This document shows positions 2,866-45,880 of a DNA stretch of 64,000 nucleotides, piece after piece. The stretch covers positions 434,001 through 498,000 of the forward strand of contig JAPETS010000012.1 of NCBI GenBank assembly GCA_026023565.1, written 5' to 3'. Each line of letters opens with the position of its first letter. Positions within the stretch are counted from its first letter, which is position 1. The translations under genes and the position numbers were made by a program. The DNA is from Cirrosporium novae-zelandiae. Taxonomy: Eukaryota. Under the pieces are notes generated by a model. It was not told the origin of the DNA. It made no database searches and worked only from the letters and a program-made list of their open reading frames with translations.

Positions 2866-4180
2866 TGTGAGAAGGTAGATGAGACAAGTTTCCCTAAGGT
2901 CTTATTATGATCAGGAATGTTTCTATCCTTGCATTGCACTTGAGTAGAAAACAATAATGGGAGAGATGTTTATGAAAAGTTTTATAAGTAATTTAAAGGA
3001 GTTAGTGGGGACTTACACGGCCTTCAAGATGTAAAGCTGTAAACGGAACTGGGAAAATAGTGGTAGAGTCCAATCGTAACCCAGCACGGATAAGCCTAGA
3101 ACGGCCAAGTAGTGAGAATGTACTAATGTTTCTCAAGCTCCCAATATTAAGTAGCTTCAAGGACAACGATATATGAGATGTGAATGCCGATGGAATGTAT
3201 GAAAGGAGTTAAAAATCCATAAAGTTGAAAGGCTCAAAAACAATTGAGATTATAAGAGTAAATTTAAGTAAACAAGCTACTTAGGCTAACTTGTCGGATA
3301 ACTGGGATTGTTTCTGAAAAATCATTGGTCTCGACTTGTTTAGAAAGAGATGATCCTTTATGTAAAGTAGAATTGAAGCTAAGCCGATGACCAAAGCCGA
3401 ATTCTAAAACCTGGTAAGTTATAGGATATAGCAAGATCGATCCAAAGTAGTGAAGCATTGACTGGCGTTCAAAAGACGGGAGCCGCCACTACTGTAGGTC
3501 TTGATATAAAAAAAGAAGTCACAAATACCAATTATGCCGCTAGGATAGCACCGTTTTCCCCAGATCAGTTTCAACATGTATGATAATGGGGACCATGAGC
3601 CAAGGAGACATATAAGTTAGTTATATGTACTTAGTAAAAACAAAGTGAAGATGAAATAAGATGAAGTAAACAAAGTTTATTAAATACCTAGGTACTGTAC
3701 TGTACGTACAGGGAAATACATGGAAGAACCCATGTGGTCGCGGATAGTCCCGAGGACCCGAAAGACCCTAAAACTTTATCGGTTCCGGTTGTTTGCATCG
3801 TTTGACCAGGAAAATACGTGCAGTTGAGACTTGGCGAGCTCAGAGCTTGCCCAAAGCTTCTTATCCTCTTAAAATATGGGGCGTCTATTCATCCTTGGAC
3901 TAGCCAACTGTATAACCCTCGTTGGCTAAATCCATCACCGCCCAAAGACACCGCATAGCTAAACCAGCACCCCACTGCCACCTTACCCTGGTTGTCATCA
4001 CACCGAATCCAATACTACTTTGGAGTATTTCACGCACCCTTTCCTTCGGAATGTCCTAATTGGAATGTCCTAATACTTTACTACCGGTGCATTACTTGTG
4101 TGCATGAAGCGGGGACAAGGCCGACGAAGCTAGGGCAAATATGCAGACTAAGGGCCTGGGGTTCTTGTTAGGTACTAAGG

Positions 4181-6427
4181 ATGGACTTATCTCACAGTGA
4201 GGCTGGACTTTTGTCTGGGAAATCAAAAAGAACTCATGATCGTTCGAGGAAAAAGGGTCATTCTTCTAGTCGCCGTAACGCTGCTGAGGGCGATGAAAGA
4301 TATCCTCCCAAGGACGAACCAGACGTGGAACATTTACGTCAAGCTCGCGCGAACTATTTCAGTAAATCACCAGCTGAACGGCAGGCAAGGGCAAAGGTGC
4401 CGAATATATCTGGACCGTATGAAAAAATGAATCATCCAAAATCATCACATCGGGGCACGAAAGACCCAGAGACCGGCCATCACAAACATAGGTCTAAACG
4501 AAGCCACACCGCTCGAGAGGAAAGGGCATTCAAGAAGAATGATGAAGGGGAATATGTATATCGCAATAACGAGCGCAAGGAAGAAAATGACCAAAAATCA
4601 GCAAAGACTACGACACAGGAAGGTCAAGAAAGTAATAAAAATGAACTACGAAGGAGAAAAACAGTAAAACCACGGACGACAAGCAAAGGAAATCCGACAT
4701 CAACAAACACTGATGGCAAAGAATCTAAGCATGGAAAGTCGAAGGCCGAGGACGGGCATAAGGCTCGAAGATCTCGTGCTGATGGTGCCAATCCTGGGAA
4801 ACCCACCATAACAAGGTAATAACCTATTCATGATCTTGGTATACTATATATCGTCTAATCAATAGTAGGAGTAAAACAATGTATGAATCGCCATCTAAAC
4901 GACATCCGTCTCTCGAACGGGCCAAAGCTACAAGGCATGCATCTGCCAACCCTACAATCCCACCTCAAGTTCAATCTAGCTCAACCAAGGTCGAACCGGG
5001 AAAGAAAAATGATCGCAACACTGGGTTTCTGTCCATGCTTTTCAAAGCGCCTCCACCTGCTCCCCCAGAGAAGAAGTTCGTCTACCACGCTTATTTCTAA
5101 GGGCTACATAGTAACTATGCTTAGGGTTCAATGCATAACATGCCTTTCCGACGATCTTCCTTCGTCAAAAACAGCAAAATTATCCTGCGATCATCGAATG
5201 TGCCATAGTTGTCTGAAACGGGTCTTCAAATTATCTTTGACGGATCCATCACAAATGCCTCCGAGGTGCTGCCGCCCACAGGAACATATTCCTCTGAAAT
5301 ATGTTGATAAGCTATTCGATGACTCGTTCAAGATGAAATGGAATAAGAAGTATCATGAATATACAACCAAGAATCGTCTATACTGCCCAAAACGAGGATG
5401 TGGTGAATGGATCAGACCCGCCAATATCCATGCTGACACTTCAAGCGGAGCTACAGGTGGTCGAAAGTACGGTATCTGTACGCGATGTAAGACGAAGGTG
5501 TGCGCTCTTTGCAACAACAAATGGCATCCCAGTCGAACCTGCCCTAAGGACGAGGAAACCCGCAAATTTATCGAAACTGCCAAACAGGAAGGCTGGAAAC
5601 GCTGCTTCAATTGTTCTGCCATGGTCGAACTTAAGGAAGGGTGTAATCATATGACTTGCCGATGCACCGCTGAATTTTGCATGATATGCGGTGCCAAATG
5701 GAAGACCTGTGATTGCCCTTGGTTTAACTACGACACCGTTGAACAAGATCGTCTGCTCCACATGAATGTCCCTCATGCCCGTCAGGTTCATGCTAACGAT
5801 CCAGCAGCAGCAAATGCACCCCATGCATACCACGAAGAACTGGATCGCCGCCGAGACCAGGAAGCCCGCGATGAAGCCCTTGCCCGTCGTCTACAGGGTT
5901 TTGGGGACGACGAAGACGATACTCTTGCTCCCGAAAATGTTAATGGCAATATCATCGGTATCGGCAATGCAGCTGGGCATTTTCTCAATCAAGATTTTAT
6001 TCGTCGAGCTACTGGATTTCTGACTGGTAATTTTGGCCAAGGGATTGATCGTGTCGCTCAAGAAACCCGAGATAATGATGCAAATCTTCTTCGCCCACCT
6101 GCTGCCCTTTTGCAAGCCGAGCGAGCTGAACGAGCTGCTGCCCGTGCGCAGATGCGGCCACCTCAGGCTCATCTACCTGTGCGTGCCCGTACCAATGCAT
6201 CAAGAAGACACAACAACGCGCCAATAGCAACAGCAGAAGAGCTGGCTGTACCAGGACACACTACCCATAATTACGCTACTGAAGCTACAAGACATCACCC
6301 TGCTGCTGAAAGGAGAGGGACCAGGAGAGTTTCTACTCTGGCAGGGCTGACAAACGGGGCGAGAGGACAAGGAAGAGTGAGCGGATGGTTAAACGGAGTG
6401 GCTATTGGATCCAATCCACACGAATAA
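4181..6427 (+). CDS. RBR (RING-IBR-RING) E3 ubiquitin ligase with a basic low-complexity N-terminus
   Basis: Introns 4816-4868 and 5076-5124 join three ORFs. RING1 CITC..CDH..CHSC, IBR YCPKRGC..C..C, RING2 RCFNC...GCNHMTCRC..FCMICG. Confidence 0.9.
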
Positions 6428-8554: not shown

Positions 8555-8816
8555 ACAAATTCGGATCAATCTTTAATTACCTACCCTCCACGAACCCTCT
8601 CGGGATATAATTGTTCATATATTGTTAGGGAATAGCTAACCCCAAAGGGCTGATTGGGGGTGGCGGCAGGTGTAGATTTATTTGAGTGCATAGACTTGCA
8701 TGGCCTCTTGCAGATCCACGACATATATTATTCAATACAAAATATAATAACTCAAAAACAGATATACAATTCCTTGAAAATAATTAACCATTTTTATTGC
8801 AAAACAAGCAAGCAGC

Positions 8817-9278
8817 AAAAAGTTCAGATGCCACCTCTTACATGAGAGAGCGCATCCTATGAAAACCACCTCCAAGCGAGAGTAGTTTTACAACCTGTTG
8901 TGGTCTAGAACTCACAACACAAATTTTTGTGGTCCTCCCGCCAGAAAATTGCGAAAGAAACCAAATTCAGGCTCGGTAAGCCAGGCTCGGTGTAATGATT
9001 TCTCCAAGGCTCAGCCAGCACCTTGGGAAAATTACACACAAAGCTCGGTTTCCAGAGACGTAATTTTATTTTGTTTTCGGGTCCAATCAAACTTTTGGAC
9101 CGAAAACGAACCATAGGGGAAGACTGTCCCCTTTGTCAGACTGTTTACGACTTGCGTTGTCGGATTACAGAATCAATTGTGGAGACTGTAGGAGTTGAAC
9201 CTACACACTTTGTTTGGCGGGGAACAGAGTGCACCAATGGTTGTAGCGCTTCCGTAACCGATACACTACACCGCCTCC
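8817..9278 (-). ncRNA. Candidate Pol III-transcribed structured RNA (or tRNA-derived SINE) with a tRNA-like 5' domain
   Basis: On the minus strand: A-box TAGTGTATCGG (9258-9268), B-box GGTTCAACTCC (9191-9201), T-arm TGTAGG/CCTACA, acceptor-like GGAGGC/GTCTCC+A, at least 6 downstream hairpins and T5 at 8817-8821. Family not recognised. Confidence 0.6.
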
Positions 9279-9575
9279 CGATAATAATTTGATTCTGAAA
9301 ATTGGATGAATTTGAAGGTTGGATGTTGAATGGTTACTGAAAGATTTAGAGGGATTCATAAGTTAGCTTCTTTGCTGGCAAAATTGAAATCCCGGTCACG
9401 AATAAATTTTAATGTGAAAATTAGTGACCATGCATACAGCAAATCATAAGGCCAGGGTAGGTCAGAACTTGAAAGGTCATGGAGGTTTTCGCAAGACCTC
9501 TTTCCCGGAATTTAGTAATAATATTATAGTATTTCGAGGTATAGTGGGGAATAACTACTCCCACAACATCTAGGT

Positions 9576-11094: not shown

Positions 11095-12454
<1,360 letters not shown>

Positions 12455-12829: not shown

Positions 12830-15440
12830 ATGATTCGACGTCGTTTGAACACCTCCATCGACCGCCGCGCCCGCAATCTCAGCCCCAACGAAGAAGAGCC
12901 GCTCGAATTACGACCATGCATTGCCGAATTGGTCAGAACCGAATATTGTCCTCCGGAATTACTTTTACTAGTTGATAAGATCTTGATTGTGGACACGGAA
13001 ACAGAACATGAAATTCTGCAAGCTTATAAACTTTTCTTAAGTGATGGGGAATATTGCATCCAAGGTATACTAGATATTTTACCCGTACATACTCAATAAG
13101 AACTTGCATCGCTAACATCGTATTAGCCGTATTGAAATCCGAGGTTCATCGATTCGTCTGGACAGGAGAAACGAAAGAAGGCTCATACATTGTGCTTACT
13201 AAATATGAGCTGGCAAGGGCTAAGAGGCTTAATGGAAATGGCGAGGTCGCGTACGTTTCATGCAGAATTTCTACCAAGGAGAGATAACTTATAGATGATT
13301 ATCACAAAGATACATCGCTATTGCCGACTTCCACGTGGTGGGCTATGATGGGCGCGAATCCAATGACTCCATCCAAACAGAAGTCCGGCAGAAAATACCA
13401 CCATCAAGCCATCCATTAACAGAAGAGAACCTTGAAGAACTTGATGCTAGCTTTGAGAAACAATTAAAGATGGCAGTTGATGCATTTGAGAACCCTTCTG
13501 AAGGTCATCCATCGTCACCAACACCGATGGAACACGGGGCTGGTGCAATGGAAGGTATTGATGTTAGAGATATGCAGTCTTCTGAACACATCTCCTTGAA
13601 GCGTGGTGCCGATCCTTCAGACGCTGGTGACTCCAAACGACGAAGAGTTTCGCCTGATATTTTGGACAGTACATCAAGAAACTCCTCTCACATGTTAAAA
13701 ACTCAAGCAATGATAATCGAAAAGCCTCTCCTTAATGCTCCTAAACCTTCATCTTCCATTCATAATTCCGAGGAGTTCCCCAACGTTGGACGTTCTGGCC
13801 TACAAAAATTTGCATCTCACTCCAGTGAAGACCGCCAGATTTCTTTCACTACTCAAACTCAGCAGCCAGTCAATACGGCCAAAAACCAGGTCATCAAAAT
13901 TGATGCTAAGATTACATTAGGCGAACGCAGCAACGAGGAGTCAACCACGCAGGACGCCATTTTAAGACAGCCAGCAATAGACACCTCGCAAGATGAACAG
14001 GAAACTCCCTCACTCACAAAACGTCCAGAGAGGATATCTAACAATCAAAGCGTCGATACCACCTACCCACTTAAGAGCAGTAACAATGTGCCCCCCAATA
14101 CTCCACTTAAGTCGGGACGATATTTACTCGCAAGACCCCGGAGACGTCATAGAACCTTAGTCGCCAGAAACGCACGACCCAAAGGTCAGAAGTTATATGA
14201 TGGGCTGTCTGAATTTCTGAACAGTACGACTGAAAGGCCTCGAAATGAACGTAAAAATTATTTTACCACACACCCTAGTACTAATGATAATACCCACTCG
14301 CATATAAAATCTCGATCTCTTGGTAACATTGGCGAGATTTCCGCTTTTAAAGATAGGGAAACTGCCCCTACATCAAAGCACGCTGCTCCTAATAATGAAG
14401 ATACAAATGATATTTTACGCTTAACGGCCAGAAACCTACACCATACACGCCGAGATAATTCCGCTGTTGATTCAAAAGTGGAATCTTCACGAAGTCCTCT
14501 AGAGGCTGATTCCCACGCAATCACTACCTCCGATAATGGCACATCTACCAGTCCCACACCTGTTAGCCGGGTGCCGGGCATTCCATTTTCTAATCCCGCT
14601 TCTAAGAGCGCCCTTTCTGCCCATAGAGACGGAACTACTGTTTTACATGGCCGATCTTGGTCCTCGAGTTCGGGATATTCACACCGCTCAGGGGCATCTG
14701 CTCGTCCTGTCTCCAGAAGCTCTCTTCAAGCATCTTATACCCCAAACGACAGCTCAAAAACAAACAATCCAAGCTCTACTTCTAGATCCCTGGGCACACT
14801 GAATGCAAAACCTAGCTACATCGCGAACACCTCCAATTCAATCAACAACAACCATCTGCCAAAACTACCAACCAGAAATTCCAAATCTAACCAGCAAGAC
14901 ACCCCCAGACCCCACCACCAACACCAAAAACACAACCTCAAAATAACGTCCCTTTCTCACCTTCCCCACCTCCCACCACGCAACTACCGCCTTACAGCCC
15001 TCATAATCATCACCTCTGTCTCCCCCACCATAAAACGCCCCCGCGCAAACCTAAACATGCTTCCACAACGCGACTGCGAAGTCACAGATCTCAGCCTCCT
15101 ACAAAAATATCTCGGCGACGCCGACACCACCACCACCTCCTCATCTTCTCCCCAAACCCTAAAAACAATCCCCCTAAGCGTATTCGTAGATGCCCAAAAC
15201 TTCAACCCGCAACCCGGAACCGTAGCGCTAATTAAGAATGTGAGGACCCATGAATGGAAGGGCGGGAGCTTGAAGGCTTATGATGTTGATTGTGGTGGTG
15301 GGAGGGAGTGGTTTGTTGGGGGCGTGGAGAGGTTGGTGGAGTTGGGGGTTGATATGGAGGTTGTGGGGGCGTTAGGTGATTTGTGGGATGTGGTTGCTAG
15401 GAGGATTGGGTTGGGTGGAGATGGTGAAGGGAAGGGGTAG
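12830..15440 (+). CDS. Uncharacterised protein with putative N- and C-terminal OB-fold domains and a long disordered linker
   Basis: Introns 13065-13126 and 13251-13309. N-terminus YKLFLSDGEYCIQAVL...EGSYIVLTKYE resembles RPA1-N OB. C-terminus LSVFVD...PQPGTVALIKNV..HEWKGGSL is OB-like. The middle is S/T/N-rich. Confidence 0.7.
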
Positions 15441-15928: not shown

Positions 15929-17702
15929 TTATTTTGGGAGTATAATTTGATTAGGTAATTGATTCCGTTTGTTGTTGTTATTGTCTGAGGGGTGGTGGTA
16001 GTGCTTCTAGATTTAGATCTGATGATGGTTTTTGGCCGTATACGACCCACCTAGGATTTGACATTGTTAGTTTAGAGTTTTAGCAGCCATCTGGGTATGG
16101 ATTGGTGGATAGTAGATGGTGGATGAAATAATGATAAGAGGTAGATAGAAAGCGCATAACATGTCAAAGGAATTCAGAGGAAAATGGAAGAAAACTCACA
16201 TGGGCACATAAATATGCCGTTCCGTCTCCTCCATAAACGCCTTCCTCACCTGCGTCAAGTAAACCATCATCCTCTCCTTACTCCATCCCAACCTCTCCGT
16301 AAACAGCCTCAACGCGATTCCCTCCAACCCTTGCAGCGCTGCCTTCTTAATCTTCGGCTCGCTGACGTACCACGGAAACTCTTTTACGTGGATGTTGATG
16401 AAGCCGGCTGCTTTGAGGCGCGAGGTTAGTGTTGAGGGGGTCTGCATGTGGATGTTTCGTTTTGAGGCGGCGTCGACGACGTGGGTGCAGTACTCGGTTA
16501 TGAGGCTTGGGGGGTGCGTGTTGGGGGCACAGGCGCAGATCATGGGCCAGGTGTATTCTTGGTATTCGACCCAGCCGGAGGGTTTGAGGAAGCTGAGGGG
16601 GGTTTGAGGGTTAGTGGGTATTTAGAGGTGGCTTGGAAGGGCCTGTGAGGCTCTATGGCATTGGGGAGGATGAATGAGTGATTGGAGAAATGCAATGCAT
16701 ACCGAAATGACTGTCGACACAGTTTGTCCCAGTCTCTCCAGCCAATAGAGAGAAGACGCCCATGGATGAAATCGAATTTATGATGATACGTCCAATCAGC
16801 TTCCGCGTCGTCGACCTCGAACTCGCAGTTTGGCGGTATCCTGCCAAAGGTACTTAAGATCCATAAACTTAGAAGTCCACTAACTTAAGGGGAGAAGACA
16901 GGTTATAGGAGTTTGAGTATCGAAATGTATACCATGTAGGTTGTATTGGACTGTTAGGCATTCCCGATAACCCCATCATCAGCTAGAGTTGTATGTTATG
17001 ATGAGATGGGTTTGCGCACCTCAAATCTACCCCGATAATTCTTGCGGAAGGATGCGCGTCCGCCGTATCGATCACCCAATTCCCGGTTCCCGTTGCAATA
17101 TCAAGGATATCTTGGACGTCACCTGAGATCGGCGCACACTGAAGTTTGCCGTCGAGGGCTTCGAGCCAGATTCCATGCTGGAGGTCTAGTCGATCTTGTT
17201 CGAGCTCGTCGTTTGGAAGATCATATCCTTGATTGGATGAGGTTTGGTTAGCTCATTTCTGCCACAAATGATTGCTCTTCGAAATATAATAGCCTCTACT
17301 ACAACCCAGGGCTATAAGGGGGAGTCCTCACGTCCTGCTTTAAACGAATGATACCTCCGTCCATTGCTGTATTCGAATTTCGTCACTTCGCTATTCAGAC
17401 TATTTAAGCTCCTATTTGGCGCAAGGAGTATACAAATCAGCATTAAATATATGATAAAGATAACATATCTATGAGTCTTATGCTGAAATCATGCCGAGCC
17501 TGGATAGCGAATCGACCAGCATAGAATATAGAGAGGATACGAACGAAAAATTATCGTCACCAAGAGTTGAGTCGGCTTCTATCTGCTATATGTACGACCG
17601 AGTATTAGCAGTCGACTTCAACGGTTGAATAGACACAGCATTTAGCTAGAGGAGACTGACAGCGACATCCTCGGCGGTTGTAGGGAGATCAGACGAAGTC
17701 AT
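15929..17702 (-). CDS. Class I SAM-dependent methyltransferase (LaeA-like/TAM fungal family), multi-exon
   Basis: Spliced manually: NGRRYHSF, PNDELEQDRLDLQH, ILDIATGTGNW, IIGVDLSPIQP, PPNCEFEVDDAE, FDFIHGR, LKPSGWVEYQE and VVYGQKP. No frameshift found. Confidence 0.88.
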
Positions 17703-44729: not shown

Positions 44730-45880
44730 ACACAATCATGAGAGAGAGAGAAAGAGAGAGAGAACAAGGTAGGTGAAAGGGGGAGGAAGGGGAGAGGTTA
44801 GGGGAACGGGGGGGCCGGAAGAACTGTCGTGCTCTAGGAACAAATATAATACGTGCAGAGCACCACATGCCTTTTTTGATTTGTTACAACTTGCATGATG
44901 AAATCCTTGCTTTATCCATCATCACCTTTTTTTACAATATTCATATCTGATTAGATCAATTGATCAGATGGCCTTTTATTTTTTATCGACACACATGATG
45001 AAAAAAAAATGCAGGGCTATATACGACTTAACGATGAGAGAAGAAGAGGAAAAAGAAAGAAAGAAAGAAAGATGAAATTCAAATTTTTTTCCCTTCCTCT
45101 ACCTCCCCTTTTTTTCTCTCTCTCTCTCTCTCTTTATTTTTTTAAGTTCATAGGTGATAGGGAAGGGGGGAGAATGAACCGCAAACCGCAAACCGCGAAG
45201 AAGGAAGGGAGGGAAATAAGATAAAGACATCATTTCTTGGGATGGGAAGGACGGACGGGAATATAGGTTTTATAGGTTTATAGGGATTTATTTGCATTTG
45301 CATTTTTATAGAATTATATTTATTTATTTTTAAAACCTTTACTCTTTGGATTTTGGCTTTTTCGTGTTTATTTGTTTATTTATTGAGAGAGAAATATATA
45401 ATTATATAATTATATAATTATATATGTATGTGGTTTTTTTTTTGAGGAGAAGGAGGCGTACGTACGTACGTGGGCTTCATAGGCAGGCAAGGGCAGACAG
45501 GCAGAAAGAAGGGAAGGAAATTAAAAAACAGCAATGAGGGATTGGGTGAGTGACTGAGTGACCCAACAGCGATAAAGATTTCTACTCTACTCTACCCTAG
45601 GCGTTTGAGATTATGATTTGAGGGACCTCTTGATGGATTGGTTAGGGGGAAATTTGGATATGGATGTTTGGGGGGGTTTTTTTTATACTTTTTGGGTTTT
45701 TATATTGGAAGGGGGATGAGGGATGGGAAGGAATGTTTCAGATTTTTTTTTTTGGTTGGGAGGGTTTTGGGGGCATTGTGTATGTATGTATATATGTTGT
45801 ATATTTGTGTATTTGTGTATTTGTGTATGTGCACATGGCTGGCTTTCTCTCCCTCTCTCTCTCTCTCTCTCTCTTCTAGG
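44730..45880. repeat. Low-complexity / microsatellite-rich intergenic tract
   Basis: (GA)n at ~44740, (CT)n at ~45115 and ~45855, (TATAATTA)n at ~45396, (CGTA)n at ~45457, and poly-T/A runs. Confidence 0.85.

Follow-up and report, generated by a model that had tools for sequence, protein, structure and literature searches.

Between two protein-coding genes of the window, by which we mean the whole 64,000-nt stretch of DNA analysed here, lies a 462-nt element whose first ~100 nt look like a derivative of a tRNA gene, followed by a long run of consecutive hairpins; the structured region extends from this head to the first run of five T (T5; Table 1). The reading we favour, tentatively and at somewhat less than an even chance, is that of an orphan Pol III gene, single-copy and lineage-restricted, whose tRNA-like leader is comparable to the leaders of RPR1 and SNR52 and to the fungal tRNA-X dicistrons. 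A recruited tRNA gene is the simplest account because the promoter and a minihelix are intact, the decoding parts are ruined, the structured run continues to the T5 run, and the element is present in a single copy. Against a Pol III gene stand the lack of a homologue in 80 HGH1-anchored fungal loci and a folding comparison that does not clearly favour either strand. A preliminary description, made from the letters alone, had already proposed a Pol III non-coding RNA here, and that proposal is borne out in part, by the tRNA-derived A/B-box head, the structured body reaching to T5, the lack of an Rfam family and the single copy.

The analysis shows the sequence elements, the fold, a lack of known family and a single copy; the transcription, termination, processing and any function of the element we infer. 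In the scheme that we propose, the first ~100 nt would be a decayed tRNA gene that has lost decoding and has kept its A and B boxes together with a 12-bp acceptor/T minihelix. TFIIIC would bind these boxes and place TFIIIB on the AT-rich DNA just upstream; Pol III would then start a few bases before 9279, run through the head and ~360 nt of hairpins, and stop at the T5 run, leaving a transcript whose 3' end would be a hairpin with a U tail. The head would most likely be cut off, or at least 5'-trimmed, by RNase P/RNase Z, a step that is proposed because the minihelix with its discriminator A has the shape of a minimal RNase P/RNase Z substrate, and the ~360-nt body would persist as a stable protein-bound RNA. 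The four internal T4 runs might end Pol III transcription early, and the absence of any internal T5 run over ~440 nt is not unusual, having a chance of ~0.6 by our own estimate.

Table 1. Features of the element and of the neighbouring genes, in window coordinates
Feature	Position	Strand	Remarks
tRNA-derived head	9180..9279	-	looks like a four-way junction; comprises an acceptor-like stem, an expanded D region, an anticodon-like arm with 8-nt loop, the T arm and the discriminator A
A-box-like element TAGTGTATCGG	9258..9268	-	sequence reading; fits the form TRGYNNANNGG
B box GGTTCAACTCC	9191..9201	-	within the T arm (9205-9187); pattern match and Rfam alignment
Structured body	8822..9179	-	~358 nt of consecutive hairpins by folding; family-less in Rfam
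Hairpin	9115-9132	-	z -1.44
Near-perfect hairpin, 13 bp	9073-9107	-	-14.9 kcal/mol, z -3.97, 0/200 shuffles as good
Imperfect central hairpin, ~99 nt	8966..9064	-	-33.1 kcal/mol, z -3.31, 0/200 shuffles as good
Hairpin	8990-9037	-	z -3.84; part of the larger 8966-9064 hairpin
Possible loop-strand contact, UGGCGGG	8937..8943	-	complementary to CCCGCCA in the anticodon-like loop (9221-9215)
Hairpin	8896-8919	-	z -2.39
Hairpin	8862-8889	-	z -4.13
Hairpin	8827-8856	-	z -2.74
T5 run, candidate Pol III terminator	8821-8817	-	directly 3' of the last hairpin and CTGA-AC
RBR/IBR ubiquitin ligase	4883-6427	+	neighbour protein
HGH1, several exons	ends 8554	+	neighbour protein
hmgX/TTC36-like, 238 aa	10292-9576	-	relatives named hmgX (L-tyrosine degradation cluster) or tetratricopeptide repeat protein
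Glyoxalase/HPPD-like ORF	11095-11793	+	HPPD-N-terminal and glyoxalase Pfam matches near threshold

The tRNA-like head

Read on the minus strand, the head is closed by an acceptor-like stem of 6 bp, in which GGAGGC (9278-9273) pairs with GTCTCC (9186-9181), and a discriminator A stands unpaired directly after it, at 9180. The T arm, TGTAGG/TTCAACT/CCTACA at 9205-9187, has a T stem of 6 bp, and with this stem stacked on the acceptor-like stem the 3' strand CCUACAGUCUCC forms one continuous 12-nt strand of the minihelix. A further stem of 11 bp, AGTGTATCGGT/ATTGGTGCACT, contains four G-U pairs. These features agree with the preliminary description, which had placed the A and B boxes, the T stem with its TTCAACT loop on a 6-bp acceptor-like stem plus discriminator A, and the GU-rich 11-bp stem where we find them. 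Where it saw no valid D arm or anticodon arm, the former point needs amending in part: alignment to the Rfam tRNA model (RF00005) recovers a D stem of 4 bp (GTGT/GCAC), with A14, G18 and G19 placed in a D loop that a 25-nt insertion interrupts. The anticodon-like arm carries an 8-nt loop, CCCCGCCA, without U33.

The Rfam alignment spans 9275-9180 and every position of the model (1-71 of 71), with a score of 18.9 bits that falls short of the threshold of 29; the E-value of this match is 0.49 for a search of 901 bases with 4227 families, or ~0.008 by our own arithmetic when rescaled to a search of the complete window with the tRNA family only. The acceptor strands pair completely (6 bp) when the register is shifted by 3 nt, and not otherwise. 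ARAGORN called no tRNA gene in the window, the head included. Of the features by which a tRNA is recognised, the head has a GGTTCRANYCC-type T loop, an A box, an acceptor stem and a discriminator, and it lacks a score above the Rfam threshold, detection by a tRNA finder, a 7-nt anticodon loop with U33 and a compact D loop. With its D-loop insertion, its U33-less 8-nt loop and its sub-threshold score, it looks like a sequence derived from a tRNA gene that, on this evidence, cannot be a decoding tRNA.

Folded on its own, the head reaches a minimum free energy of -36.5 kcal/mol (z -2.98), as good as which none of 200 shuffles was. The pattern GGTTCRANYCC matches the window once, at the B box itself (9201-9191), and taken alone this is not significant, with one match against 0.66 expected and at least one in 46 of 100 shuffles. 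Likewise, the window has a single A box with a B box 20-70 nt downstream of it, and no such pair occurs in the 535,225 bases of other fungal loci (all 80 HGH1-anchored loci). There is no canonical TATA box upstream of the head.

Two kinds of repeat lie close by. A tandem 17-nt direct repeat (76% identity) is found at 9290-9323, immediately upstream of the head, and a 12-nt inverted repeat, 9300-9289 with 9176-9165, brackets the head with 11 of 12 pairs formed. This inverted repeat, noticed post hoc, is marginal, being matched by 17 of 500 shuffles, and its upstream arm (9300-9289) probably lies ahead of the start site.

The structured body, its strand and its family

Downstream of the head, the body folds on the minus strand at -118.7 kcal/mol (z -4.04), and the whole 462-nt element at -156.5 kcal/mol (z -4.47); in neither case was any of 100 shuffles as good, so that in the comparison with shuffled controls which the preliminary description had proposed, the fold is the better one. 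The six hairpins that it named all fold as described, at z-scores from -1.44 to -4.13 that are biased, the windows having been picked for being hairpins. The CTGA-AC-TTTTT end that it reported is present too, and its T5 run is the first run of at least five T downstream of the head on the minus strand; the four T runs between head and T5 reach T4 only. A GCT/GCTT-like simple stretch follows 3' of the T5 run. The G+C content of the element is 46%, and neither strand has a stop-to-stop open reading frame of more than 97 aa, so that the element is taken as non-coding.

Some sequence motifs recur within the body. The central hairpin was matched to its own reverse complement by nhmmer (9064-8966, E 1.5e-6); it contains ACCGAGC three times and an exact 10-nt direct repeat (8968-8977 and 8982-8991), and the last two hairpins before the T5 run (8862-8889 and 8827-8856) share a YCUCUC...GAGGUGG design. 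Both recurring motifs, ACCGAGC and GAGGUGG, are marginal and were found post hoc.

Among 24 control windows of 462 nt on the same strand, 23 had z-scores between +2.18 and -2.22, where the element scores -6.7 under the same 25 shuffles as these controls. The sole exception, 45100-45561 (z -5.83), is simple-sequence DNA, with TATAATTATA repeats, GA/CT tracts, poly-A and poly-T in the block 45000-45660, and its folding score is spurious. In a scan of 169 windows of 200 nt, four consecutive windows of the element had z-scores from -1.4 to -2.6, with flanks near 0 on both sides, and three windows elsewhere were lower, at -3.3 to -3.6; it is thus the length of the run that is unusual, and no single hairpin. 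The three low-scoring windows, all on the minus strand and with 20 shuffles each, are 13501-13700 (-3.6), 3601-3800 (-3.57) and 16101-16300 (-3.25).

The preliminary description had taken the G-U pairs as favouring the minus strand. The claim is only weakly borne out, with 17 such pairs in the minus-strand fold of the body against 11 in the plus-strand fold. The plus strand has the lower z-score (-4.81, against -4.04 for minus) at a weaker energy (-110.1 kcal/mol, against -118.7). Folding hardly separates the strands, and what sets the orientation is therefore the T5 run together with the tRNA-like head.

At curated thresholds, Rfam had no match in the whole window. At E up to 10, searches of 8600-9500 and 8810-9185 returned the sub-threshold tRNA match and otherwise only trivial hairpin or wrong-strand matches, namely microRNA models on the 9073-9107 hairpin, at 14-16 bits against thresholds of 90-111, and a plastid-UTR model on the wrong strand at 15.9 bits. 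The silence of Rfam on the known families up to that E-value is in line with the earlier failure to match RNase P/MRP, SRP, U3 or snRNA motifs, and the proposed check against Rfam has given no strong match to a known family, only tRNA below threshold. As far as the Rfam models searched can tell, the body appears to belong to no known family. Literature searches brought up no account of such an element in Pezizomycotina.

Several candidate families were considered individually and rejected. For nuclear RNase P RNA (RF00009) there was no model match at E up to 10, and the CR-I and CR-V patterns, whose strands form P4, were absent; RNase MRP RNA (RF00030) likewise had no match at E up to 10, with the GAAAGUC-type CR-I unmatched. 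The sole AGNNNNAU match sits in a hairpin loop. SRP RNA had no match at E up to 10 to any model of the Rfam SRP clan, Fungi_SRP included, and C/D box snoRNAs (SNR52 type, U3), which pair a 5' C box (RUGAUGA) with a 3' D box (CUGA), were set aside with no UGAUGA even at one mismatch and no match to a snoRNA model. CUGA occurs four times in the element, once near the 3' end at 8827-8824. Resemblances to strings of the U1 Sm site, U2, U3 and human RNase P are judged to be chance, because no model matched.

Genomic setting, copy number and relatives

The element occupies the spacer between HGH1 (plus strand) and the hmgX/TTC36-like gene (minus strand), and protein relatives show that the preliminary description had named both neighbours correctly. 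It starts ~300 nt 3' of the hmgX stop codon (9576), on the same strand, and ends ~260 nt from the stop codon of HGH1, which is on the opposite strand. Spacers between convergent or co-oriented protein genes are typical sites of tRNA-type genes. Judging by the neighbouring genes, the element probably lies at the edge of a tyrosine-degradation gene cluster. The best named relatives come from lichen-forming fungi and their allies in the Pezizomycotina and are no more than 54-56% identical, which indicates that the genome is from a sparsely sampled lineage.

Neither blastn (word size 7) nor nhmmer found a second copy in the 64-kb window. In a public set of 157,048 contigs (35.7 Mb), one 15-kb contig covers 8000-10300 with no differences, the set itself possibly being the source of the window; no further contig of this set matched the element at 80% likeness or above, and the single-copy result covers copies of at least that likeness. 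From two further sequencing runs nothing aligned to the locus. One copy in the window and one contig at 80% likeness or above together argue against an active SINE, and a single copy is the outcome that the preliminary description had set as favouring a non-coding RNA over a SINE.

For comparison we used loci from a fungal metagenome scan anchored on a 10-sequence alignment of HGH1, in which 109 of 503 pattern-matching stretches encoded a relative and the best 80 served as loci (535,225 bases). Across these 80, blastn and nhmmer found no homologue of the element beyond one weak match of 50 nt (70% identity, E 0.11). Rfam families had no match in the 10 loci scanned for them, and ARAGORN called no tRNA gene in the 42 scanned. 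Gene order is not kept, the IBR gene being present in 3 of the 80 loci (L032-L034) and hmgX in none. These three loci are near-identical and represent the closest relative found in the comparison; their IBR ligase has 73% protein identity to that of the window and lies ~4 kb from HGH1, inverted. B-box-like strings are very rare in the loci: GGTTCRANNCC has one occurrence on the two strands of the 535 kb, where the 64-kb window has two.

Competing explanations and known Pol III systems

Fungal SINEs of tRNA origin share the layout of the element, an A/B-box head followed by a few hundred bases of unrelated sequence, ~0.5 kb in all (the Mg-SINE of Magnaporthe is ~0.47 kb), and we regard it as unlikely, though deserving real weight, that the element is the relic of such a SINE or of another retroposed Pol III element, an old, immobile and functionless copy. 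A direct repeat matching at 9 of 10 positions, AATTATTATC (9289-9280) and AATTATTTTC (8785-8776), brackets the element, abuts the head and is possibly a flanking repeat, and the GCT/GCTT-like stretch after the T5 run would suit the same origin. The ratios TpA/ApT and (CpA+TpG)/(ApC+GpT), 1.0 and 0.98 in the element as against 0.76 and 1.27 in the window, also point this way, being near what we take to be the thresholds of repeat-induced point mutation. However, the direct repeat was noticed post hoc and its sequence is rich in A and T, a G+C content of 46% is unlike the outcome of heavy repeat-induced mutation, and the body is unusually well folded. Moreover, the element differs from fungal tRNA-derived SINEs in being single-copy at 80% likeness or above, with no other copy in the 64-kb window and one contig running straight through it; in having no A-rich tail; and in having an internal terminator, a T5 run 31-35 nt ahead of the putative 3' repeat that would end a transcript before the tail that a SINE requires. 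A somewhat smaller chance attaches to a dead tRNA gene next to ordinary spacer or the 3' UTR of hmgX, with hairpins that are fortuitous or act at the level of DNA or mRNA and with no separate RNA gene. The position of the element on the hmgX strand, so soon after the stop codon, fits this account, as do the failure of the head in tRNA tests, the nearly equal folding of both strands, as expected of DNA palindromes, and the similar or lower z-scores that further windows of 200 nt reach within the first 17 kb. It accords less well with a structure that is sustained over four consecutive 200-nt windows up to T5 between flanks of z near 0, with a 462-nt z-score unbeaten by 23 ordinary control windows, with a 3' UTR that at 760 nt would be long for a fungal gene, and with a minihelix and two promoter boxes that are intact despite the ruined decoding parts.

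A very divergent nuclear RNase P, RNase MRP or SRP RNA with an RPR1-type leader seems highly improbable. Its dimensions, a leader of ~100 nt and a body of ~360 nt, are near those of S. cerevisiae RPR1, whose mature RNA is 369 nt, and the RPR1-type layout of an A/B-box leader, an RNA of ~370 nt and a T-run terminator is present, a layout that describes the yeast gene and not the RNase P family; yet Rfam gave no match at E up to 10 in searches of 376 nt and 901 nt, and the CR-I, CR-V and GAAAGUC strings were unmatched. Quite improbable, too, is that the tRNA-like module is no disposable leader but belongs to a long Pol III RNA of a new kind, in an isolated lineage of ascomycetes related to lichens, with the CCCGCCA loop docked on UGGCGGG ~270 nt downstream. 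Head and body would then act in a single particle that presents a tRNA-shaped arm, a tRNA mimic inside a ~460-nt ribonucleoprotein RNA, without counterpart among known Pol III RNAs. The contact (9221-9215 with 8943-8937) would comprise seven pairs, six of them G-C, at -16.5 kcal/mol, which is marginal, being equalled by 24 of 500 shuffled bodies and noticed post hoc; the duplex energy between head and body is not significant, as 34 of 300 shuffles equalled it. It is improbable, finally, that the element is a Pol III precursor of small RNAs, in which the head would provide promoter as well as RNase Z cleavage and the hairpins would be diced to microRNA-like RNAs. The body does offer an imperfect hairpin of ~99 nt (z -3.31) besides several shorter ones, but most stems, at 10-13 bp, are too short for Dicer products, and the microRNA models scored far under their thresholds (14-16 bits versus 90-111). 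Neurospora, also of the Pezizomycotina, makes its major milRNAs by Pol III, and milR-4 depends on RNase Z cutting the tRNA that is transcribed together with it (PMC3547838); the Neurospora leaders described there are real tRNA-Ala genes, however, and not decayed ones.

The recruited-tRNA Pol III gene that we favour has its nearest parallels in yeast. According to PMC2566860, S. cerevisiae RPR1 has a tRNA-like promoter within its first 84 nt, snR52, RPR1 and Zod1 have A and B elements upstream, and the yeast leaders could not be folded into a tRNA-like shape by the authors. The element is like RPR1, SNR52 and ZOD1 in that its A and B boxes stand within the first ~100 nt, ahead of a longer structured RNA, and that the unit ends at a T run, and unlike them in a body without RNase P, MRP or C/D snoRNA features; its head is a further difference, still folding into a four-way junction of tRNA-like form that includes the 12-bp minihelix.

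The tRNA-X dicistrons are the other parallel. Yarrowia has tRNA-5S and tRNA-RUF70 (tRNA-Trp-RUF70) dicistrons (PMC2566860), and Neurospora milR-4 is cut by RNase Z from a Pol III transcript that contains tRNA-Ala (PMC3547838); in both cases the tRNA supplies the promoter to a promoter-less second RNA whose 5' end is set by RNase Z. The element resembles these in having a tRNA-shaped unit 5' of a second RNA, and its sequence and fold contain the shape of an RNase Z substrate, a 12-bp minihelix with discriminator. It departs from them in that their leader is a working tRNA, whereas that of the element is non-decoding, and in that their second RNA is ~70-120 nt or a small-RNA precursor, whereas that of the element would be ~360 nt and family-less. 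By analogy the element would be intermediate between dicistrons with a working tRNA and A/B-box leaders that can no longer be recognised as tRNAs. The element is thus a plausible orphan Pol III RNA gene, of a layout that is known in its general form.

If the element is transcribed, a long RNA without a family would be added to the very few RNAs that Pol III makes in fungi, and the gene would be an intermediate of a known evolutionary route along which a tRNA gene becomes first the leader of another RNA and then no more than its promoter, standing between the dicistrons of the Yarrowia type and the unrecognisable leaders of RPR1 and SNR52. Fungi of this group, for which hardly any molecular tools exist, would also gain a tRNA-like cassette of natural origin that combines a Pol III promoter with processing. 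As a dead SINE or tRNA relic, it would be ordinary. A tRNA-like fold that serves as an RNase P/RNase Z handle within a longer RNA, as proposed here, is also found in MALAT1-mascRNA and in the 5S precursor of Haloferax, whose tRNA-like element is mentioned in PMC2566860; unlike the head of the element, these folds do not act as promoters, and their place is either 3' of the functional RNA or directly upstream of it.
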